Assembly: GCA_023953695.1 (NCBI GenBank)
Contig: JAMLJG010000010.1
Location: 3,069 to 67,068, forward strand
Direction: 5' to 3'
From: Kiritimatiellia bacterium
GTDB lineage: Bacteria; Verrucomicrobiota; Kiritimatiellia; CAIVKH01
Length of the DNA: 64,000 nucleotides
A program made the translations under genes and the position numbers. The notes below the pieces were generated by a model, which saw only the letters and a program-made list of their open reading frames with translations, did not search any database and was not told where the DNA came from. Positions 5,099-59,092 of the stretch are shown here, piece by piece. The stretch's first letter is position 1, and every line of letters starts with the position of its first letter.

Positions 5099-5145
5099 TT
5101 CCAAGCGTTGGAAGTCAAAACAGGCGCGACTTCCAAGCGTTGGAA
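5099..5145. repeat. pair of TTCCAAGCGTTGGAA palindromes, 32-bp phase (5099-5113, 5131-5145)
   Basis: Read directly. Lies between the stop of 5150..6376 (4 nt away) and the start of 4584..5075 (23 nt away). Confidence 0.95.
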
Positions 5146-5149
5146 GTTC

Positions 5150-6376
5150 CTACTCCGCGCCAGCCATCGCGCGGCCCGCGATCCAGCCGGAGGTCCACGC
5201 GGCTTGGAAATTGAATCCGCCGGTGACGGCGTCCACATCGAGCAATTCGCCTGCGAAGTGGAGGCCGGGGCAACGCTTGCTCTCCATCGTCCGAAAATCC
5301 ACCTCGCTCAGCCGCACACCGCCGCAGGTGACAAATTCGTCTTTGTACAAACTCTTCCCGTTCACCGAGAGGCGGCAGGCGTAGATTTCTTCCAGCAAGC
5401 GATTCTCGCCCGCCTTGCTCAACTGCGCCCACTGCCGGTCGGCCGGTATCTCCGCGCGACGGCACAGCCATTCCCACAAACGCGCGGGCGCTTCCAGCAC
5501 GCCGCCGCCGACCACGACGCGGCGGGGGTGCCTTTTTCTGCAATCCGCAAGTTGCGCGGCAAACACGTCGCGCGGGCCGCGCTGCCACGAAACCAAGATG
5601 TCGAAGGTATACTCGCAACCCGCAAATTCGCGCGCGCCCCACGCGGACAACTTCAGGGCGGCGGGGCCGCTCAGACCCCAGTGAGTGATCAACAGCGGCC
5701 CCTTCTGCGCCAACCGTTGCGCGGGCGCGGTGATTTGCGCATCGGGCATGGAAATGCCGGCGAGATCGCGCAGAGTGGAATCTTCGATGGTGAAGGTGAA
5801 AAGCGAGGGCACCGGCGCTTCGATGGTGTGGCCAACGGAGGCCGCGAGTGAGTATCCGGCGGTGGCCTTGTTCCCCCCCGTCGCGAGGAGAAGGCGCTCG
5901 GCTTCGAAGGCCGTTCCATCGGTGAGACGCAGCGCGAAGCCCTGGGCGCCGGGCTGAAACGCGCAAAGGCCGCGCCGCGTGAAGACGCGCACGCCCGCCT
6001 CTTCCGCCTCCTTGCGCAAGCAATTCACAATGCTGGACGAGGAATCGGTGACGGGAAACATTCGCCCATCGCTTTCCACCTTCAGGGGCACGCCGCGCGA
6101 TTCGAACCACTCGACGGTATCGCGCGGCTGAAAGCGGCGATAGGGCCCGTTCAGCTCGCGCGCGCCGCGCGGATAATTCAGCAACAGGCGCGGCACATCA
6201 AAGCAGTGGTGCGTGACATTGCATCGGCCCCCGCCGGACAGGGTGACTTTCGAGAGCAGTTCCGGGCTCTTTTCGAAGAGCACAACCTGTGCGCGCGGAT
6301 TGGCATTGGCCGCGGCAATGGCGGCAAAGAATCCCGCAGCGCCGCCGCCGGCAATGGCAATGGTGCGCGATTTCAT
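5150..6376 (-). CDS. HI0933/BaiN-like NAD(P)/FAD-dependent oxidoreductase
   Basis: Dinucleotide-binding motif IAIAGGGAAGFFAAI, GGGRCNVTH motif, and length typical of the HI0933 flavoprotein family. Confidence 0.85.
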   Translation of the reverse strand: MKSRTIAIAGGGAAGFFAAIAAANANPRAQVVLFEKSPELLSKVTLSGGGRCNVTHHCFDVPRLLLNYPRGARELNGPYRRFQPRDTVEWFESRGVPLKVESDGRMFPVTDSSSSIVNCLRKEAEEAGVRVFTRRGLCAFQPGAQGFALRLTDGTAFEAERLLLATGGNKATAGYSLAASVGHTIEAPVPSLFTFTIEDSTLRDLAGISMPDAQITAPAQRLAQKGPLLITHWGLSGPAALKLSAWGAREFAGCEYTFDILVSWQRGPRDVFAAQLADCRKRHPRRVVVGGGVLEAPARLWEWLCRRAEIPADRQWAQLSKAGENRLLEEIYACRLSVNGKSLYKDEFVTCGGVRLSEVDFRTMESKRCPGLHFAGELLDVDAVTGGFNFQAAWTSGWIAGRAMAGAE

Positions 6377-6427
6377 ACGGCGAGAATAGCGGCGCGCACG
6401 CGCGGTGGAAACGAAATCACACGCGAT

Positions 6428-6856
6428 TTAGTGACACCCGCACGAGCCGGATCCGCACGCGCAGCCGCCAACGGAAACTTCGTCGTTCGTCGGCATGCGG
6501 CCGAGCTCGAACATCCTGCGGACATAGGCGTTCACGGTCGCTTCAATCTTCTGCATGGACCGCTGCGCTTCAATGAATCCCTGCGCGATCGGATTGTTGA
6601 GAAACGCGGTTTCGTGGTTCTCAAAATCCTGCATCTCCACTTCGGTGATCTCCACACCGGACTGGTGCTTTTGATGGAGCGCTTCCTGCAAATCGCAGAG
6701 GCGCTGATATTGCGCGCGCGTTTCGACATCGGCGAGGAAGGTCTCGATGGTTTGGCGCATTTCCTTGTAGGCGGGCTGATCCAGGATGGTCTGGCAAAGC
6801 TCCTTGATCTTCTGAACAACGATGGTGTCTTCCTGACGAAACGAAAGTGGCTTCAT
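6428..6856 (-). CDS. YlbF/YmcA-like (UPF0342) helical protein with Cys/His-rich C-terminal tail
   Basis: Helical YlbF-like core (AYKEMRQTIETFLADVETRAQYQRLCDLQEAL...) followed by the tail GGCACGSGSCGCH. Confidence 0.55.
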   Translation of the reverse strand: MKPLSFRQEDTIVVQKIKELCQTILDQPAYKEMRQTIETFLADVETRAQYQRLCDLQEALHQKHQSGVEITEVEMQDFENHETAFLNNPIAQGFIEAQRSMQKIEATVNAYVRRMFELGRMPTNDEVSVGGCACGSGSCGCH

Positions 6857-6963
6857 GGCTCTCCCCTCAACTACTCAATGTACAGCATACCCCAGAAATT
6901 TCGACTGCGCACTCAAGCAGGGATTTGACGGCAACGCAAGCCTCCACGCGAGAACGCGCGGGC

Positions 6964-9180
6964 TTACATCAGGGAAGATGCGTCCACATCCACCGACCAC
7001 GCCACGGCATCGGGCCACTTGAAATCGCGCAACACGTCCTTGAGCGGCGCGGTCATCTGCTTCGTGTGCGGGGCGCGAAGAATGAGTTGATAGCGGAACT
7101 CGCCGTGCGCCTTGGCCAGCGGCGCGGGCGTCGGGCCGCCCAATCGAACGGAGGAATCCAGCTTCTCCTGCAGGCGCTTCGCGAACGTGGCGCCCGTCAA
7201 TTTGACCAGCTCTTCCTGCGCGCCGCGCAGGGTGATGCAAACGAGGTGGCCGTAGGGCGGATAGCCCAACTCGCGCCGATACTCGAGTTCCTGGTCCAGG
7301 AAACCGTCGTAGTCCAAGGTGCGTGCGGCTTGAATGGCGGGGTGAAACGGGGTGAATGTCTGCACAATCACTTCGCCCACCAAATCGCCGCGCCCTGCGC
7401 GACCCGCCACCTGGGTGAGCAACTGGAACGTCCGCTCTCCTGCGCGAAAATCAGGCATGTGAAGGCTCAGGTCGGCGGCGATCACACCGACCAGCGTCAC
7501 GCTCGGAAAATCGAGTCCCTTGGCAATCATTTGCGTGCCGAGCAAAATATCAATCTGCCCACCGCGAAATGCGTTGAGCACCTTCCGATACGAATCCTTC
7601 TTCGTCATCGTGTCGGAATCCATCCGCTCGATTCGCGCTTTGGGAAAGGTCTTGTGCAAGACGTCCTCCACGCGCTGCGTTCCGATGCCGGAATACTTGA
7701 AAGCGGGATCGCGGCAGTCGGGGTTCGGGCAGCACTCGGGCACCGGCTGCCCCGCGCCGCAAATGTGGCAGAGCAACCGGTGAGTCGGTTTGTGATAGGT
7801 CATCGAGACGCTGCAATTCTCGCACCGCGCGACGGCGCCGCACGAGGGGCACACGAGCGAGGTCGCGAATCCACGCCGATTCAAGAACAGGATCGTCTGC
7901 TCAGTGCGGTCGAGTCGGGCGCGAATGGCTTCATACAAATCGCTCGAGAGGACGTTCAGCCGCCGCTCCTTCTCCATCTCCTGCCGCATATCCACAATGC
8001 GCATCACAGGCATTTGGCGGTGATCCACCCGGTGCGGCATGCGCGCGAGCGCATATTTTCCGCGCTGCGCGTTGCTGTGCGATTCCAGCGACGGCGTGGC
8101 GGATCCCAATACGACGGCGCATCCTTCCCGATGGCCGCGCATCACCGCGACATCGCGCGCATGGTAGCGCGGCGCTTCCTCCTGCTTGTAGCTGTGCTCG
8201 TGTTCCTCGTCCACGACGATGAGGCCAAGATTTTTCATCGGAGCAAACACCGCCGACCGCGGGCCAATCGCAATGCGCGCCGATCCCTCGTGCACGCGAT
8301 GCCACTCATCGTGGCGCTCACCGGACGACAATTCGCTGTGCAACACGGCCACCGTATCGCCGAAACGCGAGCGGAACCGATCCACAGTCTGCGGCGTCAG
8401 CGAGATCTCCGGAACGAGAACGATGCAGCCCTGCCCCCTCTTCAAGACGTGATCAATCGCCTGCAGATAAACCTCGGTCTTGCCGCTCCCCGTCACGCCA
8501 AAAAGCAGCACCACCCTGGGATCGCCTGTGTCCACCGATTGCCGAATCAACTCCAGCGCCGCTGCCTGCTCCGGCATCAGCTCAAGCGGCTGCGTCGGCA
8601 GCACCTCGTGCCCCGCATCGGCGCGGCGGCGCAAGACCCGACTGCCCACCGTCACAAATCCTTTGCGCTCCAGCGCGCGAACGGCCGCGGAAACCGCGCC
8701 GAGTTTGGCCGTCAGCTCCGGCAGCGAAACCGGGCCGGCAGCCAACGCATCCATCACCTTCCCCTGAACCGCCGCCTTTCTCCGCAGCGCCGCCACCTGC
8801 TCCAGATCGCTCGCATGCTCCGTCAGGGAGACGATATTGACCTCCTTGAATCGAGCGCTCGTCTGCCGCACCGCGCTCGGCAACACCGTGCGCACCGCCA
8901 ATTCGACAGGCGCGACATAGTAATCTGCGATCCAACGCGCGAGGTTGAGGATGTTCTCCTCAACCAGCGGCTTCTTCCCAATCATGGCTTTGATGGGCTT
9001 GAGGTTCGGAAAGGACGACGATTCAACAAAGGAGACAACGTATCCGCTCACCGTGCGTCGGCCAAAGGGCACTTCCACGCGGGACCCGACCTGGAGCGCA
9101 TCGGAGAGCTCGCCGGGAACGAGGTAGTCAAACTCTCGATCCAGCGACAAATCCACCACAACTCTGGCAACGCGACTCAT
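6964..9180 (-). CDS. priA: primosomal protein N' (replication restart helicase PriA)
   Basis: Walker A GVTGSGKTEVY, DEEH box VVDEEHE, and Cys-rich zinc-binding insert CPSCG...CENC...CHICG...CPNPDC. 738 aa. Confidence 0.95.
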   Translation of the reverse strand: MSRVARVVVDLSLDREFDYLVPGELSDALQVGSRVEVPFGRRTVSGYVVSFVESSSFPNLKPIKAMIGKKPLVEENILNLARWIADYYVAPVELAVRTVLPSAVRQTSARFKEVNIVSLTEHASDLEQVAALRRKAAVQGKVMDALAAGPVSLPELTAKLGAVSAAVRALERKGFVTVGSRVLRRRADAGHEVLPTQPLELMPEQAAALELIRQSVDTGDPRVVLLFGVTGSGKTEVYLQAIDHVLKRGQGCIVLVPEISLTPQTVDRFRSRFGDTVAVLHSELSSGERHDEWHRVHEGSARIAIGPRSAVFAPMKNLGLIVVDEEHEHSYKQEEAPRYHARDVAVMRGHREGCAVVLGSATPSLESHSNAQRGKYALARMPHRVDHRQMPVMRIVDMRQEMEKERRLNVLSSDLYEAIRARLDRTEQTILFLNRRGFATSLVCPSCGAVARCENCSVSMTYHKPTHRLLCHICGAGQPVPECCPNPDCRDPAFKYSGIGTQRVEDVLHKTFPKARIERMDSDTMTKKDSYRKVLNAFRGGQIDILLGTQMIAKGLDFPSVTLVGVIAADLSLHMPDFRAGERTFQLLTQVAGRAGRGDLVGEVIVQTFTPFHPAIQAARTLDYDGFLDQELEYRRELGYPPYGHLVCITLRGAQEELVKLTGATFAKRLQEKLDSSVRLGGPTPAPLAKAHGEFRYQLILRAPHTKQMTAPLKDVLRDFKWPDAVAWSVDVDASSLM

Positions 9181-9232
9181 GCGGCAATCATTCCGAAGCC
9201 GTCACAATTTGCAAGCCGCCGCCATCGGAACG

Positions 9233-10939
9233 CTAAACCAGCCAGCGACACTGGTATGGCGCGAGGGTTGCGAGCGAGTGGGAGCGAGGGTTCAACAAAT
9301 CGCGCGCGGCGGATTTCACCTCCGGCAGCACGACCTCTATCGGCGCGTCGGTCAGGTTGTGCAATGCGAGAACAGTCGCGCCACTCGCCGCTGTCCGGCG
9401 CAGCGCGATGCAACCCGCAGCGGCCTCCAACACGGCCTGCGCCGCATCGGGATGAAAGGCCGCGCACGAGGCGCGGATTTTCAGCCGACGCCGCAACTCG
9501 TCGAAAATCTTCCGCTCGCGCCCGTCCGAGATGTGGAACAGCGAATCCAGCTCGGCCCGCACCCATTTCTTGCGATTCAGCGAGCGCGCGCGACCCGTGA
9601 CCTTAAAGCCCGCTTCGTCGTTGCTCGCCCCCATCAGACTCTGAAAATAGACAGCCGGAATCCCCTGCAGCGCCAGCGGCAGCGTCTGCGAGCAGAGAAA
9701 ACGCTCGATATCCAACGCCTCATCCCCGCCCTCAGCCAGCGCGCTGAAATAGGTGATGTTCAACTCGTACGGAACATCGCGCCCCTCTTCCGTTCGGCGC
9801 GTGGAGACCTGCCCGCCGCGCGCGAGCGTTCGCGCCACGAGCGCTTCAACCTCCGCATCCGGCAGAATGCCCTGCAGCGGGCGCACGCCAATCCCATCGT
9901 GCGATGCGGTGAAGTTGAAATAGGTGCAACCCGCGGGCGGCGCGGAGAGCGCGCGCAGCCACTCATGGAGATAGCGCCCATTGCCCGTCTGCAAGGCATG
10001 CAGCAGCAGCGGCGGCAGACTGAATTGATAGACCATATGCGCTTCGTCGCCATCGCCGAAATAGCGAATATTCTCCTCATGCGGCACATTGGTCTCGGTC
10101 AGGAGCAGAACGTTGGGCGCAACCAGTTCCAACACGTCGCGGAACAACTTCACAACTTCGTGCGTCTCGGGTTGATGAATGCACGAGGTCCCAATGCGCT
10201 TCCACAAATAGGCAATTGCATCGAGCCGAATCACGCGGGCGCCGCGAGCGATGTAGCCGAACAGAATGTCGAGCATCTCAAACAGCACATCCGGATTGGC
10301 GAAATTGAGATCGAGCTGGTCATCGCTGAATGTGGCCCACAACCACCGGCTCTGCCCGGATCGCTTCACCTCCGCCAGCAGCGGCAAACTGCGCGGCCGC
10401 ACCACCGCAGAAAGATCGGCATGCGGATCCGTTTCGATGAAATAGTCTCGATAGGGCGCGTCGCCTTCGTAGTAAGACTGAAACCATCGGCTCTTCCGCG
10501 AGACGTGGTTGAGCACGAGGTCGAACATCAGGTCAAAGCGCGTGCCCAACGCCTGTACATCCTCCCAGTTCCCAAGCTCGGGATTCACCGAGCGATAGTC
10601 CATCACCGAAAACCCGTCGTCGGAGGAATAGGGATAGAAGGGAAGAAGATGAATCGTCGTGAATGCGTCGGCGAGGAACTCGTCTGCGAATCGCCTCAAA
10701 GAGGACAGCGGATGCACATCGCCCTCGTGCAAAGAATCGCCATAGGTGATCAGCACGGAATCGCGTTCGCTCCAGCGCTCCGCGCTATCGCTTTCCTCCA
10801 ACACGCCCGCGCCAACACCATAGCGACCGAACATCGAAGAGAGCCGATCCAGCAGGCGCGTGGCGTTCCCCTCTCCATACAGTCGTGCCAGCCGCCCGCG
10901 CAGGCGACCTCGCATTCGGGGTGTCATCCAAGCGCCCAT
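9233..10939 (-). CDS. GH13_18 sucrose-phosphorylase-like sugar phosphorylase (candidate glucosylglycerate phosphorylase)
   Basis: Alpha-amylase-family blocks FDLVLNHVS, GARVIRLDAIAYLWK, LLTETNVPHEEN and NFTASHDGIG match sucrose phosphorylase-type enzymes. Its start directly abuts the stop of the upstream GT gene. Confidence 0.8.
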   Translation of the reverse strand: MGAWMTPRMRGRLRGRLARLYGEGNATRLLDRLSSMFGRYGVGAGVLEESDSAERWSERDSVLITYGDSLHEGDVHPLSSLRRFADEFLADAFTTIHLLPFYPYSSDDGFSVMDYRSVNPELGNWEDVQALGTRFDLMFDLVLNHVSRKSRWFQSYYEGDAPYRDYFIETDPHADLSAVVRPRSLPLLAEVKRSGQSRWLWATFSDDQLDLNFANPDVLFEMLDILFGYIARGARVIRLDAIAYLWKRIGTSCIHQPETHEVVKLFRDVLELVAPNVLLLTETNVPHEENIRYFGDGDEAHMVYQFSLPPLLLHALQTGNGRYLHEWLRALSAPPAGCTYFNFTASHDGIGVRPLQGILPDAEVEALVARTLARGGQVSTRRTEEGRDVPYELNITYFSALAEGGDEALDIERFLCSQTLPLALQGIPAVYFQSLMGASNDEAGFKVTGRARSLNRKKWVRAELDSLFHISDGRERKIFDELRRRLKIRASCAAFHPDAAQAVLEAAAGCIALRRTAASGATVLALHNLTDAPIEVVLPEVKSAARDLLNPRSHSLATLAPYQCRWLV

Positions 10940-12205
10940 CTATTGCTCCGGCATTCCCGTGATATTGGTCATCAATGTATGCAGGCTGCGCCGCAAAACG
11001 GAATAGCCATAGTAGCGCGCGGCCACCCTGTAGTTGTGCTCGGTCATTTCCTCGCGATAGGTCCGGGACTCCAACAGCCGCCGAACCTCTTCCACCACGT
11101 GGCGCGACACATAACCATCCATCATCGGACAGCGGAATCCCTTCGGCTCAATGTCGCGCCCGAAGACCCCGTAGCGGTTCACGATGACCGGCACCTTAAA
11201 ATAGATCGCCTCGAGAAACGCGTTGCCGAATCCCTCGTACAAACTCGGGTAGGTGACGAGATCCGCGTGCGGATAGATATCCCACAGGGTAAAGACTTTT
11301 CTCCCCTCGCCGTCCACCAACCGCGCGTCGGACACCTGGGTCGAAACGAATCGCATATCCACCCGAGCCTCGCGCGCCATGTCGGCGAGCATGTTGCGAT
11401 ATTCAAAACCCTCATCGCCCGCTTCGTGCGAAATGATCAACTTGTACTTCGGATCGTTGAGCATCTGCACGAGTTTGATGGCATGCTCAATCCCCTTGCG
11501 CGGGACGATGCGGGTCGGCTGCAGAATAAACACATCGGCGGGCGACAGCCCGAGTTGCGCCCGCACATCGGAAGCATAGGCATCAATCGGCGGCGGCGGC
11601 TTCTCAAACTCGATCACATTCGGAATGAGGGTTGAGGTCAGCCCTTTGCGCCGCGCCAATTCTTCGAGCGCCTCTTGATTGATCACCACATGTTGCAACC
11701 GCGGATCGCGCGGAGGAAATGCCATATCGAGCAGATCGGGGATCGCATTGATGGAAAAGCGTGCGCGCTCCCAATAGAAATCGTGATGGTGCGCAATGGC
11801 GGGCAGCGAGGTCTCGGCCAAAAATTGCGTGATCGCGACGCCAAGCGGAACGTGCATAGGAATCGTCACCGCGTTCTGAATCACCAGCGTGTTGAGTCCG
11901 AAGCGGCGGACGAATTCGTACAGCGTGGTTTTCAAATAGGCCGACAGTTCACTCATCCGTTCGCTAACCAACGGATAGCGCGTCGTGCGCCCCCAGATGT
12001 GGTCATTGATCCAGCGGTTCTCTGAAAATCCGAAGAAGGCTTCCGGAACACAATAGCTGCTCTCGCGCGGGCGATCGAGCAGCCCGGCGAACCAGAAAGA
12101 CTCGTGGCCCATCTCCGCCAGAACATCCGCCCACTTTTGGCTCTCCAGCGAAACGCCATCGGTCCCGGCAAAACGAGTTGAAATAAACCCAATGCGATCC
12201 GCCAT
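10940..12205 (-). CDS. GT-B (GT4-like) glycosyltransferase, possible mannosylglucosyl-3-phosphoglycerate synthase-type enzyme
   Basis: C-terminal GT4 signature YPSLYEGFGNAFLEAIYFKVPVIVNRY. Located in the gpgS cluster. Precise specificity cannot be read from sequence. Confidence 0.65.
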   Translation of the reverse strand: MADRIGFISTRFAGTDGVSLESQKWADVLAEMGHESFWFAGLLDRPRESSYCVPEAFFGFSENRWINDHIWGRTTRYPLVSERMSELSAYLKTTLYEFVRRFGLNTLVIQNAVTIPMHVPLGVAITQFLAETSLPAIAHHHDFYWERARFSINAIPDLLDMAFPPRDPRLQHVVINQEALEELARRKGLTSTLIPNVIEFEKPPPPIDAYASDVRAQLGLSPADVFILQPTRIVPRKGIEHAIKLVQMLNDPKYKLIISHEAGDEGFEYRNMLADMAREARVDMRFVSTQVSDARLVDGEGRKVFTLWDIYPHADLVTYPSLYEGFGNAFLEAIYFKVPVIVNRYGVFGRDIEPKGFRCPMMDGYVSRHVVEEVRRLLESRTYREEMTEHNYRVAARYYGYSVLRRSLHTLMTNITGMPEQ

Positions 12206-12235
12206 GATTAATTCTGATTCTGTGAACCCTTATCG

Positions 12236-12251
12236 TGGACACCGCTCTGCA
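12236..12251 (+). promoter_or_regulatory. weak sigma-54-like -24/-12 element TGGACACCGCTCTGCA
   Basis: GG-N10-GC spacing is correct and the -12 half CTGCA is close to TTGCW, but the -24 half TGGACA is poor. It sits 51 nt upstream of the 12302 start codon. Confidence 0.2.
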
Positions 12252-12301
12252 TGCAGCTTTAGAATACGCTCTGACACACCCCCCGGACAATTCATTAAAG
12301 A

Positions 12302-13489
12302 ATGACACATCGAGAAAACCATATTCGCGCAAGGGATCAACTGATTCGCGAATTGCCCGACCGAGTTCATGCCGCCGAGTCGCTGCGTGAACAGTTCCTC
12401 GCGCACCTCGTGCTCGCTGGCGAGATTCCCGCGCCCACCTTCAGCGAGTCCAATCGCGTGGATACGCTCCTGATGCGCTGGAGCGAGGGAGGCTTGCTGA
12501 ACTGCTCGCGCGACGGGATGGGCAACGGGGTCGCGCTGCGGCCCGGTACCGACGGGGCACAAACCATCCTCATCGTGGCTCGTGCCGACACCGCCCTCGA
12601 TGAATCTGTGGACCATGCGCTCACGGTGCAACCCGATTGCGTTTCTGGCGTCGGCGTCGCGGAAAACACCATCTCCCTCGCCGCACTGGCCACACTGCCC
12701 ACGCTGCTGGATCTGCTGAACATTCGCCTCAAAGCCAACCTCGTTTTCCTCGCAGCCAGTCGAAGTGTCGGGCGCGGCAACCTCGAAGGACTCCGCTATT
12801 TTCTGGCCAATAATGCAATACCCATCCACTTCGGCATCTGCCTCGAAGGTGCGCCGCTCGGTCTGTTGAGCTATCGCTCCATCGGAATGCTGCGCGGCGA
12901 AATTCACTGCCGAATGCCCAGCGACTACCAGTGGGCAAACCTCGGCGCAGCAGGTGCAGTGCTGACGATCAATCAGGTCATCAACCGCATCGCGGCCATC
13001 CCGTTGCCGCGGCGACCGGCGACTTCCATCGTCCTCGGATCGCTCGAAGCCGGGCACACCTATGACCACTACGCGCGGCAGGCCCTGCTGCGCTTCGAAG
13101 TGCGCTGCGAATCGGCGCTACAGGCGCAGCAGATCAGCGAACAACTCGCAGATATCGTCGCTGAAGTCCGCGCGCAGTCGGGCGCTCATGTGGACCTGGA
13201 CATCTTCGCCCAACGCGAGCCCGGCGGCATCTCCATCAGCCATCCTTTTGTCCGCGTCGCGCGACATGTTGTCGAAGCGCTCGGAGTCCCGCTGCAAATT
13301 GCGCCGAGCACCACCGAACTCGCCGCGCTCATCGACCGCAAGATTCCTGCGCTTACCATTGGACTCACGCGCGGAGAAAGCCTCGATGACGAACGCGAGA
13401 AGGCCGAAATCCGCCCCATTTATCAGGGCATGGCTCAACTGGCGACGCTGCTGCTCGCCATAGACGGAGGATTGTGTGATGAAGTTTAG
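12302..13489 (+). CDS. M20 peptidase-like protein with apparently degenerate metal/catalytic motifs
   Basis: Overall ArgE/DapE/dipeptidase-like layout, but the by-eye motif positions read VARADT (usual H-x-D), GVGVAENT (usual G-x-G-x-x-D) and AASRSVG (usual EE). Overlaps the gpgS start. Confidence 0.55.
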   Translation: MTHRENHIRARDQLIRELPDRVHAAESLREQFLAHLVLAGEIPAPTFSESNRVDTLLMRWSEGGLLNCSRDGMGNGVALRPGTDGAQTILIVARADTALDESVDHALTVQPDCVSGVGVAENTISLAALATLPTLLDLLNIRLKANLVFLAASRSVGRGNLEGLRYFLANNAIPIHFGICLEGAPLGLLSYRSIGMLRGEIHCRMPSDYQWANLGAAGAVLTINQVINRIAAIPLPRRPATSIVLGSLEAGHTYDHYARQALLRFEVRCESALQAQQISEQLADIVAEVRAQSGAHVDLDIFAQREPGGISISHPFVRVARHVVEALGVPLQIAPSTTELAALIDRKIPALTIGLTRGESLDDEREKAEIRPIYQGMAQLATLLLAIDGGLCDEV

Positions 13490-14504: not shown

Positions 14505-14508
14505 CGGG

Positions 14509-14545
14509 CGCCTGACGCGCGACATCGGATCAGGCGAGATTTTTT
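14509..14545 (+). terminator. possible intrinsic terminator after gpgS
   Basis: 7-bp stem CGCCTGA/TCAGGCG with a 14-nt loop, followed by AGATTTTTT. The loop is larger than ideal. Confidence 0.35.
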
Positions 14546-14580
14546 CTGCACCTTTCCACCGTCGCGCGTTAGCATGAGCT

Positions 14581-19432: not shown

Positions 19433-19452
19433 TGCACTTCTCCTTAATTCGA

Positions 19453-20382: not shown

Positions 20383-20429
20383 TTCCAACCCTTGGAAACT
20401 CGGGGCGCGCGCACTTCCAACCCTTGGAA
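20383..20429. repeat. pair of TTCCAACCCTTGGAA palindromes, 32-bp phase (20383-20397, 20415-20429)
   Basis: Read directly. Lies between the dihydropyrimidinase stop (20458) and the prpB start (20325). Confidence 0.95.
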
Positions 20430-24303: not shown

Positions 24304-24350
24304 TTCCAACGATTGGAAAAAGCCCTGAAACGAACTTCCAACCCTTGGAA
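24304..24350. repeat. pair of palindromes TTCCAACGATTGGAA / TTCCAACCCTTGGAA, 32-bp phase
   Basis: Read directly. Lies between two convergent gene ends (stops at 24270 and 24389). Confidence 0.95.
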
Positions 24351-27086: not shown

Positions 27087-27208
27087 ACCGCAATCCTAGC
27101 GAGACCCCGCTCGCCTGCCTAGAGAGGAAACCTGTTGAAGTTGCGCCCCCAACCCGCTAACTTCGCCACACAAATTGACAAGCGAACCCGCGACGCGGGC
27201 ATCGCATC

Positions 27209-27301
27209 GGAGGGGTGGCTGAGCGGTTGAAGGCACTCGACTCGAAATCGAGAGACCGCCTATAAAGCGGTCCGTGGGTTCAAATCCCACCCCCTCCGCC
27301 A
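27209..27301 (+). tRNA. tRNA-Ser (anticodon CGA)
   Basis: Cloverleaf folded by hand. Acceptor GGAGGGG/CCCCTCC; anticodon stem CTCGA/TCGAG with loop CTCGAAA; long variable arm; T-arm GTGGG-TTCAAAT-CCCAC; encoded CCA. Confidence 0.9.
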
Positions 27302-27331
27302 TCTCAATACACTCCGGCACCCCACCCAAAC

Positions 27332-27500
27332 GGCAGGGCAACTTGGCTCAAGGCTCCGCCACGCACCAGCCAAACTCACCGGCTCAGCATTCACCCACAA
27401 TAGGTAGGGCGGTTTGGCTCAAACCGCCGCCACTCATTTCGGCAAAATCCCCTCGCTCAGCCCGAATCCGCTCCGGCGCGTTGGGCCAACGCGCCCTACC
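27332..27500. repeat. three REP-like GTAG-hairpin units (27332-27360, 27403-27431 forward; 27475-27500 inverted)
   Basis: Unit 2 is GGTAGGGC followed by a 9-bp hairpin GGCGGTTTG/CAAACCGCC. Unit 1 is a degenerate copy (22 of 29 identical). Unit 3 is the reverse-orientation relative GGCGCGTTGG-G-CCAACGCGCC-CTACC. Units start 71-72 bp apart. Confidence 0.6.
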
Positions 27501-37731: not shown

Positions 37732-37871
37732 CACATTTCTCTGAAAACAAGCACGCAACATAAGCAAAGAGGCCGCGGAAACGCCAGCGCGGACTTTCCC
37801 CACGAAAAATCGCCCTCCGCGCCCTCTCCCCGCCCTCCCCACAGCCGCCGCCCCCCCTCAAACCGCCCCAC

Positions 37872-37918
37872 TTCCAATCCTTGGAAGCCCGCGCAGATGT
37901 CTTTTCCAATCCTTGGAA
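37872..37918. repeat. pair of TTCCAATCCTTGGAA palindromes, 32-bp phase (37872-37886, 37904-37918)
   Basis: Read directly. Lies in the divergent alaS/proB intergenic region and ends 23 nt before the proB ATG. Confidence 0.95.
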
Positions 37919-43479: not shown

Positions 43480-43526
43480 TTCCAACGATTGGAAATTGCC
43501 CCGACAATCACTTCCAACGCTTGGAA
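43480..43526. repeat. pair of palindromes TTCCAACGATTGGAA / TTCCAACGCTTGGAA, 32-bp phase
   Basis: Read directly. Lies between convergent gene ends (stops at 43450 and 43583). Confidence 0.95.
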
Positions 43527-43582
43527 AAAAGAGGCCCTCCGCGCGGAGGGCCTCTTCGATAAACACGCGATTGACAGGACGA

Positions 43583-47565: not shown

Positions 47566-47660
47566 CGTCCTTCGTGGAGAAAAGAGTGACTCGCAGCGCG
47601 AAAAAACGCAATCACGAGGACGCCAAAAACCGGGGTGGATTTCATTCCTCGGCGCAACCC

Positions 47661-48077: not shown

Positions 48078-48133
48078 GCTGACCCGGATCTTACCACGAA
48101 AACCCCGAAGCGCACGGATGATTTTTCCGAAAA

Positions 48134-49354: not shown

Positions 49355-49457
49355 AGCCAGCCCTTATACGAACCCTTCCCCGCGCCCGCAACGGGAATTG
49401 CAGACGCAAGCAGAGACCGGACGCATCTCCGCCCGGTCTCCGCGCACAATGCGTTGA

Positions 49458-49913: not shown

Positions 49914-49929
49914 GTCCGTATCCTTTCGT

Positions 49930-51696: not shown

Positions 51697-52292
51697 GCGG
51701 CCGTCTCCACCGACTTGCCTTTGGCCAATTTCGCGCGCGCGACTTCCGCCGTCTGCGCGTCGCCCAGAAAAATTCGAATCACACGGATATTCGCCTGCGC
51801 TTCCGGAATCTTCACCTTCTCAAAGAGATTCACACGCTGCGAAGTTGTCCTCAACTCTTCGCCCAACAGCCGATGCTGCTCAGCGAGGATTTCGTGCTCT
51901 ATCTGAAAGCGCACCAATCGCTCCACCACGTTGCGCCCATCGTCCACCCAGGAATCGGTCGCATAGAGATCCACGGCAACCGACTCGAAAACAACGTCCT
52001 GCAGAATCGGGATGTTCACGCCCGCGATATTCCCCGTCGTCGTGCGCACCTCGCGCAGCCGAACCCAAGCGGTAAAATCCACCGGCTCGCCAAACAGGCG
52101 AATCCACGCCCCCATCCCGGCCTGTAGCCGCTCCCCTTCGGTGCGCACTTCATCCATCCGCTGCTCAAGCTGGCGCATCTCCATCTGCAACTGCTGCTTC
52201 TTCAACAGCAGCGTCGGCAGATAGCGCTTGAACCGGCGCAACGCATCGCGCTGGGTCTTCAGCTCATTCTTGGTGTGTTTGATCTTGGCCAT
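51693..52292 (-). CDS. ntpD: V-type ATPase subunit D
   Basis: MAKIKHTKNELKTQRDALRRFKRYLPTLLLKKQQL is typical of V/A-ATPase subunit D. ATGA overlap with ntpI. Confidence 0.9.
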   Translation of the reverse strand: MAKIKHTKNELKTQRDALRRFKRYLPTLLLKKQQLQMEMRQLEQRMDEVRTEGERLQAGMGAWIRLFGEPVDFTAWVRLREVRTTTGNIAGVNIPILQDVVFESVAVDLYATDSWVDDGRNVVERLVRFQIEHEILAEQHRLLGEELRTTSQRVNLFEKVKIPEAQANIRVIRIFLGDAQTAEVARAKLAKGKSVETAA

Positions 52293-52374
52293 GACTATCT
52301 ATCGCGAGAAAGGAAGCGGTTGCCTTTCCTCGCGCTCGCACCTCGAACTCGTTTCGCAGTCGCCATCTCCGCCC

Positions 52375-53670
52375 TCAACCTTTCGGCCAATATTGATCCG
52401 TCATCTTGCTCGGAATCCCCGTCTCCGCCGGATCGAAACAATCCGCCAAAATCTGCCAACCGAGATCCAGCGCCTTCTCGAGCGGAATGTTCACCGTCAA
52501 ATCCATCATCTCGCGCTCAAAGCGAACGCCATACTTCAGGAGCTTTTGGTCCCACGCGCTCATGCGGAAACCCATCGCCTGCTTCTCCAACGTCTCGCGA
52601 TAGGACGCGTACAACTGGATCATCGAATTCATGATCGTGCGGTGATCCGCGCGCGTCTTGTCATTCACGAGCTGCTTCAAACGACTCAGCGAGCCGAACG
52701 GCTCAATGCGCCCATTGCGCAAATAGAACTGCCCCTCCGTGATGTAGCCCGTGTTGTCCGGCACCGGATGCGTCACGTCGTCGCCCGGCATGCTCGTCAC
52801 GGCCAGAATCGTAATCGAACCGGCAGTGTCGAAATCCACCGCCTTCTCATATCGCGAAGCGAGCTGGCTGTAGAGATCGCCCGGATAACCGCGGTTCGAC
52901 GGAATTTGCTCCATCGTGATCGCAATCTCCTTCATCGCATCGGCGAAGTTCGTCATGTCGGTCAACAGCACCAACACGCGTTTGTTCTGCAGTGCAAACT
53001 GCTCCGCCACCGCGAGCGAAATGTCCGGCACCATCAAACACTCCACCGTGGGATCCGCCGCCGTATGCACAAACATCACCGACCGCGTCAGCGCGCCCTT
53101 CTCCTCAAGAATATCGCGGAAATACAAATAGTCGTCGTGCTTCAACCCCATGCCACCGAGGATGATCACATCCACCTCGGCCTGCAGCGCAATGCGCGCG
53201 AGCAGCGGGTTATACGGCTCGCCAGCGACGGAAAAAATCGGGAGCTTCTGCGACTCGACCAGCGTGTTGAACACATCAATCATCGGAATGCCCGTCCGCA
53301 CCATATTGCGCGGAATAATGCGCTTCGCCGGATTCACCGACGGACCGCCAATCGGCGTCTCATTCTCGCTGATCACCGGCCCGCGATCGCGTGGCTGGCC
53401 CGACCCCGTGAAGATGCGGCCCAACAGCGCATCCGAAAACGGAATCTCCATCGGGTGTCCCAAAAAGCGGACCTGCGCATCCGTCATGATGCCACGGCCG
53501 CCCGCAAACACCTGCAGATACACGCGCTCGCCCTCGAGCCGAATCACCTGCGCGAGCGACGTGCCGTGCTCCGAGGTCACCTGCGCCAATTCGCGATAGC
53601 CAATCCCATCCGCGCGAACCACAATCACGTTTCCGGCGATTTGTTCGATTTGTTGATACGTCTTATGCAT
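52375..53670 (-). CDS. ntpB: V-type ATPase subunit B
   Basis: 431 aa. Non-catalytic nucleotide-binding-fold blocks [28 protein letters not shown] and PGRRGYPG-like [10 protein letters not shown]. Confidence 0.95.
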
Positions 53671-55405
53671 GAGCCGTCACCTCCGCCAACATCTGTGTGG
53701 CGCGGGTTTCCAGATTCTTAAATTCCGGACTGTCCTGCGGCACGCGATTCCAGTCCTTCACGAGCTGCGTCAAACGCTGGAAGAACTGGCGCGCCGCATC
53801 CTTCTCCGCAAAACGCAGCGGCGCCCTGAGCACGCCGTGAATCCGTTCGAACACATACTGCTGCCGCTCCGCCGGTGTCGCCGCATCCACTTCGTGATAG
53901 GCATCCTGCTGCAGATACACCGCGTCGAGAAACTCCGCCTTCAAATACACCACGAAATCGTCAATCGAAGTTCCCTCTTCCCCCACCACCTTCATCATCT
54001 GATTCACCTCGCCGCCGCGCCGCAACATCGCGCGCGCAAACGAAACCTGCTCGTCCGGAACCACCCCGCCATACTTGCTCCACGAATCGAGCGGCTGAAT
54101 CGCCGGAAAACGCCGCGCATCCGAACGCTCGCGCGAAAGCCCGTGGAACGCGCCCACCACCTTCAGCGTGCTCTGCGTCACCGGCTCCTCGAAGTTGCCA
54201 CCCGCCGGACTCACCGTTCCGCCAATCGTAACCGACCCGATCGAACCATCCCGCAACTTCACCACCCCCCCGCGCTCATAAAACGCGGCAATCACCGATT
54301 CCAAATAGGCCGGAAACGCCTCCTCGCCCGGAATCTCTTCCAAGCGGCCCGACATCTCGCGCAGCGCCTGCGCCCAGCGCGAGGTCGAATCTGCCAGCAA
54401 CAACACATTCAACCCCATCTGGCGATAGTACTCCGCCAGCGTCACTCCGGTATAAACCGACGCCTCGCGCGCCGCGACCGGCATCGAACTCGTATTGCAG
54501 ATGATCAACGTGCGCTCCATCAAACTCCGACCCGTCCGCGGATCCTCCAAATGCGGAAACTCGCGCAGCGTCTCCACCACCTCGCCCGCGCGCTCGCCGC
54601 ACGCCGCAATGATCACAATGTCCACATCCGCATAGCGACTCGTGATCTGCTGCAACACCGTCTTGCCCGCGCCAAACGGACCCGGAATGCAATAGGTCCC
54701 GCCGCGCGCCACCGGGAAAAAAGTGTCCACAATGCGCACCTTGGTCGTCAGCGGCTCTGTCGGCCGCAACCGCTCCACATACGCCTTGATCGGCATCTTC
54801 ACCGGCCAGCGCTGCATCAGCGAAACGGTGTGGAGGCGCCCCTGCTCATCCTTCAGCTTGGCCACCTCCTGCTCGACCGTGTACGCCCCGCCCGGCGCAA
54901 TTTCCTGCACCGTCAATTTCCCGCGCAGCCGAAACGGCGTCATGATGCGATGCTCAAAAATTCCCTCTGGCACCGCCCCCAGCGCATCGCCCGCCTGCAC
55001 CGTGTCGCCCACCTTCACCTTCGGCGTGAACGCCCACGTCTTCTTCCGATCAAGCGCCGGGAGATACTTGCCGCGCTGCAAAAAGAAACCGCTCTCCGCC
55101 GCCAACTCCGGCAGCGGATTCTGCAACCCGTCATAAATACTGCTCAGCAACCCCGGCCCCAACTCCACGCTCAACAATTCGCCGGTGAACTCCACCGCAT
55201 CGCCCACACGCAAGTCGCCCGTGTCCTCGAACACCTGCGCCTCCGCAATGTTCCCGCGAATGCGGATCACCTCCGCCTTCAATCGAAGTTCGCCGCTGTG
55301 CGCATAGGCCACTTCGTTTTGCGCCACAGGCGAGGAAAACTCGACACGCAACAGGTTTCCATTGATGCCCCTGATCTTGCCCAAATGTGTCGTTGTCATC
55401 GGCAT
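53663..55405 (-). CDS. ntpA: V-type ATPase catalytic subunit A
   Basis: Walker [33 protein letters not shown], and PAYL motifs. 580 aa. Confidence 0.95.
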
Positions 55406-55411
55406 TTGTTC

Positions 55412-55972
55412 CTATCCATAAACCTCAATCGTCTCGTCCGGCGCCGCGCGCACCTGCGCCACCGTCTCGTTCAAACGCGCGCGACCCGCCTCATCGTTCA
55501 ATTGCGCCCAGCGATGAGCCATCTTCAACTTCATCGCATACGCCAGCACCGCGCGCTCGCCAAACGGCGTCGTGCGCGACCACTCCTCCAGCAACTCCCA
55601 GCGATAGCGCTCAAAAACCAACTCGCGCTCCAGCGGATTCGGTTTTCCAAACGCCTCCGCCACCACCGACTCCACCTCGACGCTAAACCACCCCCCGCAG
55701 ACGGGCTTCAGGAACGGCGTCGCATCCTCATCCCGCCGCGCCGCGCGCGTGCGCGCAATCGCATTGCGCAACAAGACTTCCGCTGCCCGCAACGGCTCCC
55801 CCGCCGCGCCGCGCACCCCCTCGAAACCACGCTCCAGCGCCGCCTCCAGCGTGGCGACCAACTTCGCATCGAGCAGACGCCGCGCATCGGCGAGAAATAC
55901 TTCAAGTCCCACCGGCGGCACACCCGTCAGCGAGACGGGCGGCAGGCTGGCCATGAAGTAGTAGTAATTCAT
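55412..55972 (-). CDS. DUF2764 protein (V-ATPase operon-associated, subunit C-position)
   Basis: 186 aa helical protein between ntpE and ntpA. This is the position occupied by DUF2764 in Bacteroidetes/Chlamydia-type V-ATPase operons. ATGA overlap with ntpE. Confidence 0.6.
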   Translation of the reverse strand: MNYYYFMASLPPVSLTGVPPVGLEVFLADARRLLDAKLVATLEAALERGFEGVRGAAGEPLRAAEVLLRNAIARTRAARRDEDATPFLKPVCGGWFSVEVESVVAEAFGKPNPLERELVFERYRWELLEEWSRTTPFGERAVLAYAMKLKMAHRWAQLNDEAGRARLNETVAQVRAAPDETIEVYG

Positions 55973-56598
55973 TTAGCGCCGCCCTCGCGCGCCACCCGAT
56001 TCACCACCTCCGCCAAATGCGGACGCAGAAAGTTCGATAGCGCCTCCGCAATCGCCTCCGGCGTGAAATCGTGCGAAACGCGGCCGCCATCCATCGAAAT
56101 CTTGAACCCCTTGAGCACCCGCTCATCGCCCCGAATCGTCAGGCCCGTCTGCAATCGCTCCTGATACTTCGCCTGGAAAAAATTGATCAGCTTCTGCTGA
56201 TCCTCCTTGCTCACCAACATCTCAATCGAACGCTCGCGATCCGTGCGCCCCGCATAGCCCTCCGCCAGCTTCACCAGCATCTGCTGCACCGTCGCCTCAT
56301 CCAACGCCGCATTCGCCGCATCCGACGCGAGACTCCCCACCACATTCTCCACGCCCTGCCCCACCGTGATCAACACATCGCGCGCCGCCTGTTTCAGCGT
56401 CTGCAAACTGCGCTCCGTGTACTGCTGCGCATCGCGATCCGCCTTCTCCAAGCGAGCCTGCGCCTGCTTCTCCGCCTCCGCAATCAGCGCCGCCGCCTGC
56501 TTCTTCGCATTCGACACCAGCTCCGCAGCTTGCCGCTCACCCGTGTCCACGGCCTCTTTCTGAATGCGCTCGATCAAATGTTGTAGTTCTTCAGCCAT
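55969..56598 (-). CDS. ntpE: V-type ATPase subunit E
   Basis: Long N-terminal Ala/Glu/Lys/Gln coiled coil (EAEKQAQARLEKADRDAQQ) plus a globular C-terminus. First gene of the operon. Confidence 0.8.
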   Translation of the reverse strand: MAEELQHLIERIQKEAVDTGERQAAELVSNAKKQAAALIAEAEKQAQARLEKADRDAQQYTERSLQTLKQAARDVLITVGQGVENVVGSLASDAANAALDEATVQQMLVKLAEGYAGRTDRERSIEMLVSKEDQQKLINFFQAKYQERLQTGLTIRGDERVLKGFKISMDGGRVSHDFTPEAIAEALSNFLRPHLAEVVNRVAREGGAK

Positions 56599-56792
56599 TG
56601 GCGCCTCGCTTAATCCAGGTTCACAAATACTTCAGTCCGAAATAGCACGCTAAAAAATCCGCACAGCCGACGGTATAAGCCGCCGCATTCCAATGCAAAG
56701 GCAAACAAGACCCGCCCTGGAAAATCAGGTTTTCCCGTATATTCGCGGTTTTCTGCCCTTCGCCCCGTCAGACCCCGCCCGCATCCGGCGCC

Positions 56793-58973
56793 TCAAGGCA
56801 CCGGAAACTTCGCCGTCAACGCGACCACGTCCTTCCGAACCGCCTCAATCGCAGAATCGTTCTGCGGATCCTTCAGAATGCGCGCAATCAGCTCCGCAAT
56901 CTGACCCATCTCCGCTTCCTTCATCCCGCGCGTCGTCACCGCCGGCGTCCCCACGCGAATGCCCGAGGTCACAAACGCGCTCTTCGCATCAAACGGAATC
57001 GTATTCTTGTTCACCGTGATGCTCGCCTTGTCCAGCGCCGCCGCCGCATCCTTCCCGCTGATCCCAAGCGGCGTCAGATCCACCAGCATCAAATGATTGT
57101 CCGTGCCACCCGAGCAAATCCGCATCCCCGCCTTCGTCAACCCCGCCGCAACCGCCCGCGCATTCGCGACAATCTGCTTGCCATACTCGCGGAACGCAGG
57201 CTGCAGCGCCTCGTGGAAACACACCGCCTTCGCCGCAATAATGTGCATCAGCGGCCCGCCCTGAATCCCCGGAAACACCTGCTTGTCCACATCCGCCGCA
57301 AACTGCTCGCGACACAAAATCAACCCGCCGCGCGGCCCGCGCAACGTCTTGTGCGTCGTCGAAGTCACAAAATCCGCAAACGGAACCGGACTCGGATGCA
57401 CCCCCGCCGCAACCAACCCCGCAAAGTGCGCCATATCCACCATCAACAGCGCCCCCACACTGTCCGCAATCTCACGGAACCGCGCGAAATCCACCACCCG
57501 CGAATACGCGCTCCAACCCGCCACAATCATCTTCGGGCGATGCTTCAGTGCCAACTCCGCCACCTCGTCGTAATTGATCTGCTCCGACTCCTTGTCCACC
57601 CCATACGGCACCACCGTGAAATAGCGCCCCGAAAAGTTCATCGGATGCCCGTGCGTCAAATGCCCGCCATGCGCCAAATTCATCGCGAGAATCGTGTCCC
57701 CCGGCTGCAACACCGAGAAATATACCCCCATGTTCGCCTGACTCCCGCTGTGCGGCTGCACATTCGCATGATCCGCGCCAAACAACCGCTTCACCCGATC
57801 CAGCGCCAACCGCTCCGCATCATCCACATTCTCGCACCCGCCATACCAACGCTTGCCCGGATACCCCTCCGCATACTTGTTCGTCATGTTCGAGCCCGCC
57901 GCCTGGCGAACCGCCCGACTCGTATAATTCTCCGACGCAATCAACTCCAAGTTCTGGCGCTGCCGCACCTCCTCGTGCGTAATCGCGTGAAAAATCTCCG
58001 GATCCTTCACCGCCACCGAACCCAGCCCCGCCGCAAAACCCCCATCCGCATCCATCTTCCCCACGCGCCGCTCGTGACGCCCCCCCTCAAACGACGCCGC
58101 AAACCACGCATCCAAAATCCCCGGCAACGCCTTCGCATCCGTCGTCACCGCACCCAACGTCAACACATTCGCATTGTTGTGCTCCCGCGCCAACCGCGCC
58201 ATCTCCGGCGTCAACACCAGCGCCGCGCGCACCCCCGGATGCCGATTCGCCGCCATGCTCATCCCAATCCCCGTCTTGCAAATCAACACCCCCTGATCCG
58301 CCTCCCCATCCGCAACCCGCTGCGCCACCCCCTGCGCATAATCCGGATAATCCACCGACTCCGCCGAAAACGCGCCAATGTCCTCCACCGCCACCCCGCG
58401 CTCCGCCAGCAAACCCTTCACCCGCTCCTTCAACTCAATCCCGCCGTGATCCGCACCAATAACCATCTTCATGACTTTTCGTTTCTCCCTCGTCCCGCTC
58501 AATTCCTTTGTTTCATCCAAAACCGAAACCAACACATCCGCCATCGCCCGCCCAATCTGATCCCGCGTATGGCGATACACATCCAGCGAACACCCAATCG
58601 GATCCGCAATATCCTCCCCACTCCGACGCACCCCAAAATCCGTCAACAACCGAACCCGCCCACGCGCCGAAGGAAACATCTGCTCCACCGCATACGCATG
58701 CCCCGCCGTCATCACCACAATCCACCGCGCCTCATCCACCAACGCGCGCGTCAACGGCCGACTCCGATGCCCCCCCGCATCAATCTCCCACTCCCGCAAC
58801 GCCACCACCGCCTCGCGACTCGCCGGCAACCCCGCCGCCGCCGCAACCCCCGCCGAAACCACCCGCCAACCCGGCCGAGCCCCCAGCCGATGCCGAAAAA
58901 TCGCCTCCGCCATCGGGCTCCGACAAATGTTCCCCGTACAAACAAACAAAATCGTGTGCTTCGCCGTCGCCAT
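56793..58973 (-). CDS. glyA: tri-domain fusion: LMW phosphotyrosine/arginine phosphatase + ribose-5-phosphate isomerase B + serine hydroxymethyltransferase
   Basis: A single uninterrupted frame of about 726 aa.
- aa 1-160: P-loop CTGNICRS and a DP motif.
- aa 169-308: RpiB ([25 protein letters not shown]).
- aa about 320-727: SHMT ([24 protein letters not shown]-Lys).
The track start 58976 is GTG; the ATG is at 58973. Confidence 0.85.
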
Positions 58974-58983
58974 CACTCAAAAC

Positions 58984-59092
58984 TTCCAACGCTTGGAAAA
59001 ATCATCTACAACCCCTTCCAACCCTTGGAAAAAAGCCCGCCCTTTTTCCAACCCTTGGAACTCATTTCGCGCACGATTTCCAACCCTTGGAA
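58984..59092. repeat. array of four TTCCAA-N3-TTGGAA palindromes (58984, 59016, 59046, 59078; phases 32/30/32)
   Basis: Read directly. Lies between the stop of the S41-like gene (59114) and the ATG of the fusion gene (58973). Confidence 0.95.

Follow-up and report, generated by a model that had tools for sequence, protein, structure and literature searches.

Helically phased palindrome arrays in Kiritimatiellia genomes as candidate binding sites for a class-specific DNA-binding protein

High-copy, sequence-specific architectural sites are known in few bacterial systems, among them the repetitive extragenic palindromes (REPs) and bacterial interspersed mosaic elements (BIMEs), matS, the Noc and SlmA sites, parS, and the DNA uptake and uptake signal sequences (DUS and USS). 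None of these combines a near-invariant 12-nucleotide dyad, arrays held strictly to helical turns, and class-wide conservation with an origin by substitution in place. Here we describe a 15-bp palindrome, TTCCAA-N3-TTGGAA (TTCCAANNNTTGGAA), that recurs as phased pairs and larger arrays in a 64-kb stretch of a Kiritimatiellia genome (contig JAMLJG010000010.1; hereafter, the window) and in other genomes of the class. The palindrome was picked out in an earlier, sequence-only reading of the window, which knew of no described element with this architecture; full-text literature searching for the motif, or for palindromes in Kiritimatiellia, likewise returned nothing relevant.

REP/BIME elements and the REPINs of Pseudomonas resemble the new element in being high-copy extragenic palindromes that form regular arrays of variable copy number within and between operons, and the REPs of Escherichia coli are bound by architectural proteins (gyrase and IHF). 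REPs, however, are imperfect, GC-rich palindromes of 20–40 nt whose head is of the GTAG type and whose linkers are conserved; they come with a cognate REP-associated tyrosine transposase (RAYT) and are typically species-specific. The Kiritimatiellia dyad, by contrast, is perfect and short, its spacers are free, its spacing follows helical turns and it is found class-wide. The dRS3 elements and Neisseria intergenic mosaic elements (NIME), together with DUS/USS, share with it a short motif that a whole family or class has in common and that occurs hundreds to thousands of times, often paired and with high positional turnover. Yet dRS3 (ATTCCC-N8-GGGAAT) flanks families of repeat units and serves phage integration, DUS/USS are asymmetric and common inside genes, and neither forms helical-turn arrays. 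Plasmid centromeres such as sopC of F and parC of R1 are also built from tandem protein-binding repeats (an inverted repeat in sopC) that nucleate a cooperative higher-order complex, but they comprise one array of conserved units per replicon, rather than many small chromosomal arrays with unrelated spacers.

Among regulatory sites, NrdR boxes consist of two palindromes of about 16 bp whose centres lie about 21 or 31–32 bp apart, with an unconserved spacer, and are bound by an oligomerising protein; tandem palindromes, whole-helical-turn spacing and an unconserved spacer are all found here too. We take the NrdR-box consensus to differ from TTCCAA-N3-TTGGAA. A genome has only a few NrdR boxes, all of them upstream of genes for ribonucleotide reductase; the new arrays, of 1–10 copies, number several per 64 kb and lie in every context, and the flanking genes tested are of unrelated function, with no nrd gene among them. 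Proteins of the Lrp/AsnC family and ComK likewise bind palindromes, of about 15 bp in the case of Lrp; they do so as dimers, which build tetramers or octamers, and Lrp is also nucleoid-associated. Adjacent sites lie about 30–33 bp apart for Lrp and are separated by gaps of 8, 18 or 31 bp for the ComK K-boxes, so that the likeness to the new arrays is one of palindromic sites at integral helical turns. The Lrp and ComK consensus is degenerate and AT-rich, in contrast to 12 positions that are nearly invariant across the Kiritimatiellia, and no gene of the Lrp or ComK family has been linked to the sites. CRISPR repeats measure at least about 23 bp, with spacers of about 26–72 bp, a leader and usually cas genes; the repeats here are 15 bp long, with spacers of 5–18 bp (occasionally 27), in many mini-arrays scattered among housekeeping genes (cas genes were not searched genome-wide). 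Rfam scans of the whole window, at gathering thresholds and at E ≤ 1, gave no match at any of the array loci. The same scans gave a sub-threshold match to the small RNA sX4 at 27194–27417 on the plus strand (51 bits, gathering threshold 70), which overlaps a tRNA-Ser and is probably driven by it.

The window carries 14 exact copies of the palindrome at the positions that had been reported (Table 1), and dinucleotide-preserving shuffles carry none. Allowing up to two mismatches adds no further copy where about 1.8 would be expected; the window copies are either perfect or absent. They fall into six loci, five pairs and one four-copy array (2, 2, 2, 2, 2 and 4 copies), and the start-to-start distance is 32 bp in every one of the seven pairs, with the two pairs of the array at 58984–59092 offset by 30 bp. 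The N3 triplets, mostly C-rich, have the values given in the sequence-only reading and are identical within four of the seven pairs, as it had said. Its description of N3 as variable is accurate in that the triplets differ between copies, but the triplet is constrained: G or C occupies its centre in every one of the 14 window copies and in 364 of the 368 from relatives. Within the core lies CCANNNNNTGG, which we take to be the recognition pattern of PflMI-type restriction enzymes. The window is identical (100%) to contig JAGFJQ010000049.1 of assembly GCA_024102575.1 over the 7.4 kb compared, and has a G+C content of about 60% with a strong negative GC skew, which becomes very strongly negative in 52001–64000 (−0.41 in the 56–60 kb bin). 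The loop bases of the palindromes track this skew, with 30 C and 8 G on the plus strand.

To place the motif taxonomically, we scanned one genome per species for the pair pattern in 8-kb blocks, and in a second scan searched for three-copy arrays; most of the related loci compared below (designated by L-numbers) were thus fetched by the pattern itself, and taxonomy is that of the labels in the database records. The pair pattern was found in at least 115 blocks from 35 assemblies, and all 115 listed blocks belong to metagenome-assembled genomes labelled Kiritimatiellia, Kiritimatiellae, Verrucomicrobia or 'Lentisphaerae', including a Tichowtungia sp. The three-copy scan yielded at least 97 further blocks from more assemblies, among them sheep-rumen Kiritimatiellae and GWF2_57_35, and a metagenome scan that used the S41 peptidase as query gave two loci. 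No copy was present in 79 alaS loci of other Verrucomicrobiota classes (1.37 Mb). The recurrence across Kiritimatiellia together with the absence from this outgroup indicates that the motif is a hallmark of one class, not of one species. The search of relatives that the sequence-only reading had proposed thus recovers both the palindrome and its phasing in at least 35 species-level Kiritimatiellia assemblies. A phage origin was dismissed, as only two of 2.9 million viral contigs contain the pair.

The spacing between copies is quantised. Counting copies with at most one mismatch and neighbour distances up to 130 bp, we found distances of 20–22 bp (16 cases), 29–33 bp (503), 42 bp (4) and a handful of others, so that a histogram of neighbour distances, also proposed earlier, places 526 of 531 within 1.5 bp of a multiple of 10.5 bp; the 31- and 32-bp classes were selected by the search patterns, whereas the 20–22, 30, 33 and 42-bp classes were not. 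The period depends on lineage, many lineages using 31 bp and others, including that of the window, 32 bp. The claim of an exact 32-bp phase consequently holds for the seven pairs of the window and fails for the class, in which 31 bp is frequent and 20–22, 30, 33 and 42 bp also occur. Arrays contain 1–10 copies, the largest 7–10, and lineages with a 31-bp period have a polar repeat unit and spacers that are conserved in part. We regard the quantisation by helical turns as the strongest argument that the motif is read on double-stranded DNA from one face.

The anatomy of the unit points the same way. The pattern-selected loci (850 kb) contain 367 perfect copies, and 77 and 39 that deviate at one and two positions respectively, which puts the exact share at 76% over at least 35 species; the consensus is (T/C)TTCCAA-N-S-N-TTGGAA(A/G). 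Positions 7 and 9, the outer bases of N3, come in lineage-dependent dialects: assembly CAIVKH has T..A in 135 of its 140 copies, SCQF and CAISWQ have G..C, and DAOLCW has the triplet ACC. Because a single nucleotide separates them, these two positions could not pair in a hairpin with a three-nucleotide loop, and their symmetry fits a two-fold symmetric protein on duplex DNA, not a hairpin. A/T tracts border the core, with a preference for T or C at −1 and for A or G at +1 that does not covary between the two sides. The orientation of the loop relative to transcription is random (TGA 40, TCA 42; GGC 21, GCC 19), and so it is within pairs: both loops are the same in 64 cases, reverse complements of each other in 51 and different in some other way in 60, with the four TGA/TCA combinations occurring 20, 18, 15 and 9 times.

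Comparisons between orthologous loci indicate which parts of an array are kept. Strains at 99.2–100% identity to the window have no indels at the elements, and only a strain at 97.75% identity (L205) is informative. In its four-copy array, 0 of 60 motif bases differ from the window, compared with 8 of 49 spacer bases (window 58999–59077; 7 of the 8 changes are transitions), and the spacer lengths are the same. Third codon positions of the adjacent gene differ by about 2%, as does another intergenic gap; at this one locus, then, the spacers look hypervariable rather than merely neutral. Of the 12 differences in a strain at 99.8% identity (L215), one falls in a spacer of this array, and it is the change also seen in L205 (59008 A>G). 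At about 80% nucleotide identity (L116), the pair next to proB is kept, with 15 of 17 spacer bases in common, and the locus contains an additional pair, while the convergent pair at 43480 is absent from the orthologous site. The place of the second L116 pair is taken in the window by a similarly long C-rich tract at 37795–37871 (CGCCCTCCGCGCCCTCTCCCCGCCCTCCCC...), a difference that resembles a replacement more than a clean indel. Over greater distances, two loci at 73% nucleotide identity to each other (L068 and L079) both have, immediately ahead of the same gene, a three-copy array whose spacers are unrelated between the two, and the gap between the amidohydrolase and phosphoenolpyruvate (PEP) mutase genes has two copies in the window and four in L064, where the flanking proteins are 65% and 60% identical. 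Other orthologous gaps differ in array content. These comparisons show purifying selection that acts on the motif and the spacing only.

Copies inside genes bear on how arrays arise. The sequence-only reading had placed every copy in intergenic DNA; this is borne out for the window, where public gene calls on near-identical contigs leave all six loci intergenic, but relatives contain real pairs within coding sequences. We found motif pairs within the conserved domains of Dus, ThiD, MnmE, an AAA_12 helicase, NamZ and an Fe-ADH (Table 1), read in different frames as FQxLE, SNxWK or FPxLGK. The exact pair in Dus, and the exact and near copy in ThiD, lie in segments of native length: alignments of both proteins to solved homologues in the PDB are ungapped across the copies, and the residues between the two ThiD copies match the homologue. 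These pairs were therefore made in place by substitution, and not by insertion.

Arrays show no preference for a particular kind of gap. The mixed context described earlier for the window (three co-directional loci, two convergent and one in the divergent alaS/proB region) stands up to the public gene calls. Outside the window, where contexts were assigned with our own simple ORF caller based on G+C at third codon positions (GC3), 149 classifiable clusters divide into 96 co-directional, 27 divergent and 26 convergent. Background intergenic gaps at the same loci number 251, 77 and 70 respectively, and the match between the two distributions implies no preference for promoter or terminator positions. 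Distances to start and stop codons are broad, about 91% of clusters are intergenic, and arrays occur at a density of roughly one per 5–10 kb, some of them within apparent operons (the gspF/gspG gap in L098; the 74-bp gap at 5099). A sigma-70-like sequence (TTGATC-16-TATCTT) lies upstream of tRNA-Asp, and the pair at 43480 abuts a GC-rich inverted repeat at 43527–43560 (AAAAGAGGCCCTCCGCGCGGAGGGCCTCTT) with A and T runs on its two sides, which looks like a bidirectional intrinsic terminator between convergent genes; the promoter and the terminator-like hairpin together show that ordinary signals are in use. The array at 58984 adjoins a fusion gene, 56793–58973 on the minus strand, in which a single 726-aa ORF joins a low-molecular-weight phosphotyrosine phosphatase domain (LMWPc), RpiB (ribose-5-phosphate isomerase B) and serine hydroxymethyltransferase (SHMT). 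The same fusion is called in the public annotation of other contigs.

Table 1. Palindrome arrays of the window with their flanking genes, and motif pairs inside conserved domains of related loci.
Feature	Coordinates	Copy starts	Start-to-start (bp)	N3	Context	Neighbours
Pair	5099..5145 (5099-5113 + 5131-5145; 17-bp spacer)	5099, 5131	32	GCG, GCG	Co-directional; most of a 74-bp gap between two minus-strand genes	HI0933-like flavoprotein 5150-6376 (minus; stop 4 nt away); 163-aa ORF 4584-5075 (minus)
Pair	20383..20429	20383, 20415	32	CCC, CCC	Co-directional, both genes minus	28 bp past amidohydrolase stop (20458); 57 bp ahead of PEP-mutase/isocitrate lyase (ICL)-family start (20325)
Pair	24304..24350	24304, 24336	32	CGA, CCC	Convergent gene ends	177-aa plus-strand gene, ends 24270; minus-strand gene, ends 24389
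Pair	37872..37918	37872, 37904	32	TCC, TCC	Divergent alaS/proB region	24 bp upstream of proB ATG (37942); ~144 bp from alaS start
Pair	43480..43526	43480, 43512	32	CGA, CGC	Convergent	DUF4380 gene (ends 43450); solute-binding protein gene (ends 43583)
Four-copy array	58984..59092	58984, 59016, 59046, 59078	32, 30, 32		Co-directional, both genes minus	S41 peptidase stop (59114); LMWPc-RpiB-SHMT fusion gene start (58973)
In-domain pairs of related loci	L103 5893-5939; L058 2333-2379; L045 472-517, 963-1009; L087 2838-2884; L051 6647-6693; L075 939-985					

In the explanation that we prefer, to which we give about an even chance, the arrays are phased so that a homodimeric DNA-binding protein specific to the class, probably an architectural or nucleoid-associated one, binds them cooperatively from a single side of the helix. 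Each 15-bp unit would be a dyad-symmetric duplex site for a homodimeric, sequence-specific protein conserved across the Kiritimatiellia. Units spaced by integral helical turns, mostly three (31 or 32 bp by lineage) and sometimes two or four, would align two to ten dimers on one face of the helix, where they may bind cooperatively as a dimer of dimers or a higher oligomer, and spacer DNA that the protein does not read would be left to drift. As arrays are dispersed in every type of intergenic gap, and some lie in genes, a nucleoid, architectural or global factor would be likelier than the regulator of a single regulon. The geometry is that of a phased operator array, with dyad sites at integral helical turns; together with the symmetry of positions 7 and 9 and the lack of orientation bias, it supports a protein site on duplex DNA, in agreement with the earlier preference for paired sites of a dimeric DNA-binding protein. 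What the sequences show is the symmetry, phasing, conservation, strand neutrality, class-specific distribution, neutral context and in-place origin of the sites; from these we infer the protein, its binding, its cooperativity and its architectural role.

Several observations weigh against this explanation. The genes adjoining arrays offer no candidate for the cognate protein: clustering of 263 array-adjacent proteins revealed no recurrent DNA-binding family, and Pfam scans of the neighbours of the largest arrays found no DNA-binding domain (the matches were KpsF-like, SBF, DegT, DsrE, metallophosphatase, GspG/GspF, peptidase C39, Hpt and hydrolase), while most proteins in the second of these scans had no Pfam match. 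Symmetric double substitutions account for 9 of the 39 two-mismatch variants, in array members of L091, L114, L011 and L035, and they are easier to explain by a hairpin or by quasi-palindrome correction than by recognition of half-sites. When single-stranded, the two copies of a pair fold together as one long hairpin (−14 to −22 kcal/mol; z-scores down to −5). A tightly bound protein would obstruct RNA polymerase at arrays inside operons, and the ascertainment of loci by the pattern and our use of our own ORF caller for contexts must be counted here as well. Finally, in a rumen genome (L277), arrays of 5–6 copies at 3580–3699 and 4638–4788, 1 kb apart, have near-identical spacers, with spacings that alternate between 22 and 30/31 bp, and form direct repeats around the gene of a predicted membrane protein (235 aa) that matches no Pfam family. 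No other clear duplication of a whole array was seen; the spacers shared by these two imply that arrays can also be copied. An autoregulated binder was considered and dismissed, as no DNA-binding family adjoins the arrays and the gene between the twin arrays of L277 encodes a membrane protein.

The long hairpin and the symmetric double substitutions could instead reflect a REP- or REPIN-like structure, in which two copies pair on a single strand and are mobilised by a Y1-type RAYT, or stabilise or process mRNA. High-copy, extragenic, clustered arrays that resemble BIMEs, the apparent duplication of one array with its spacers, and the fact that the spacers, the would-be loop, are the most variable part also speak for such a structure, which we nonetheless consider unlikely. 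Helical-turn spacing would be meaningless for a single strand, positions 7 and 9 are symmetric though unable to pair, and complementary loops are no commoner within pairs than identical ones (51 against 64), which indicates that the long hairpin is not selected. The perfect 6+3+6 dyad lacks a GTAG-type head, and one copy alone reaches only −3.3 kcal/mol. Co-directional variants with a G·U pair in the sense RNA number 6, against 10 with an A·C mismatch, and so reveal no sense-strand bias. The sequence is conserved class-wide, whereas REPs are typically species-specific, and pairs originate in place inside genes. A tblastn search with a RAYT query composed for the purpose, against 215 loci (L001–L215) and the window, gave a sole Kiritimatiellia match, L055 3649–4245 (70.5 bits to NCBIfam REP_Tyr_transpos, cut-off 80); another REP, of the classical type (GTAGTCAAGCCCGTGAGGGCTG), lies on either side of this gene. 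In the loci examined, the palindrome thus lacks a GTAG head on a stable hairpin, a cognate RAYT and selected inverted doublets. The RAYT-like gene itself (CAIVKH010000285.1, 3600–4450; HUH motif LPNHYHLVV) sits within a type I restriction-modification locus, its REP occurs in several copies that translate as a recurring peptide, ALTGLTTN, and a second tandem repeat follows at 4540–4720. A selfish minisatellite or MITE (miniature inverted-repeat transposable element)-like repeat, spreading by transposition or slippage with no host function, would account for copy numbers that vary from 1 to 10 per array, for pairs gained and lost between related species, for the L277 duplication and for the polar unit and partly conserved spacers of the 31-bp lineages. 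The sequence-only reading had doubted a classical MITE, and we find it a poor candidate too: the six window loci and 189 clusters from relatives, examined for an extended unit or target-site duplications, have unrelated spacers and flanks, no flanking direct repeats and no terminal inverted repeats, and copies in the same genome have no common internal sequence. Moreover, between loci at 73% nucleotide or 60–65% protein identity the motif and its spacing persist and only the spacers have been exchanged, pairs occur in genes without insertion, and 76% of copies remain exact across at least 35 species.

If copies can accrue by point mutation, as the pairs inside genes show, the motif could also be a DNA-uptake or self-recognition signal of the DUS/USS kind, kept by molecular drive because a conserved receptor for uptake or recombination prefers DNA that carries it. 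A class-wide motif whose density differs between genomes, the lack of strand or context bias, the many sites that are not conserved in position, and the A/T tracts beside the core (USS also carries helically phased AT tracts) are all consistent with uptake. Such a signal seems rather improbable, however, since it would leave obligate phased pairs and arrays of up to ten copies unexplained, since some arrays are kept at orthologous positions over deep divergence, and since about 91% of clusters are intergenic, a stronger bias than is known for DUS/USS. To our knowledge, known uptake signals are not palindromes, and we know of no documented competence in Kiritimatiellia. Transcription signals fare worse. 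The 16–18-bp gap between copies (period 31–33 bp) falls in the classical range for promoter spacers, so that TTGGAA-N16-18-TTCCAA might serve as the −35 and −10 elements of an alternative, ECF (extracytoplasmic function)-like sigma factor, bidirectional by symmetry; GGAA(G/A)TT resembles the ECF −35 element, GGAAC, and some pairs lie 24–57 bp upstream of start codons. Yet the two 'elements' would be perfect inverted copies of each other, spacings of 20–22 and 42 bp also occur, convergent gaps hold arrays at background frequency (26/149 versus 70/398), arrays lie right after stop codons and within genes, and the sequence upstream of tRNA-Asp is sigma-70-like, all of which makes such a promoter very improbable. 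That same tRNA-Asp promoter and the convergent contexts led us to reject a housekeeping promoter, and a sigma-54 site or enhancer was rejected by reasoning, as the gaps are too short for a downstream promoter and the spacing is unlike GG-N10-GC. That the arrays are intrinsic transcription terminators, as the many copies downstream of stop codons and the A/T runs beside the stem might suggest, is hardly credible. The stem is 6 bp long, AT-rich and worth −3.3 kcal/mol in a genome of 60% G+C, in line with the earlier judgement that it would be weak as a terminator; divergent gaps hold arrays as often as background (27/149), convergent gaps do no more, and a canonical GC-rich hairpin with T and A runs adjoins the pair at 43480. 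An intrinsic terminator would need a GC-rich stem with a U tract behind it at the 3' end of a transcription unit, a description that the palindrome does not fit.

Returning to a protein that binds the phased arrays, a bolder form of that explanation is possible, though we hold it to be doubtful: a so far undescribed, class-specific chromatin system, in which each genome would offer hundreds of phased palindrome arrays to an abundant, sequence-specific protein that nucleates on them. Selection would have built the arrays in place, even inside conserved genes, and kept them over order-level times. The arrays would then constitute a hard-wired architectural or insulating map, whose dialects (31 versus 32 bp; T/C versus G at position 7) co-evolve with the protein. 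Independently of its function, the motif marks Kiritimatiellia contigs sharply enough to be of use in binning, and it is a source of false ORF extensions in annotation, where it appears as the peptide words noted above for the in-domain pairs. If a protein is behind the arrays, they would offer an entry point into nucleoid organisation in the Kiritimatiellia, a poorly studied lineage of the Planctomycetes-Verrucomicrobia-Chlamydiae (PVC) group, and a natural experiment in which a protein co-evolves with hundreds of its sites.

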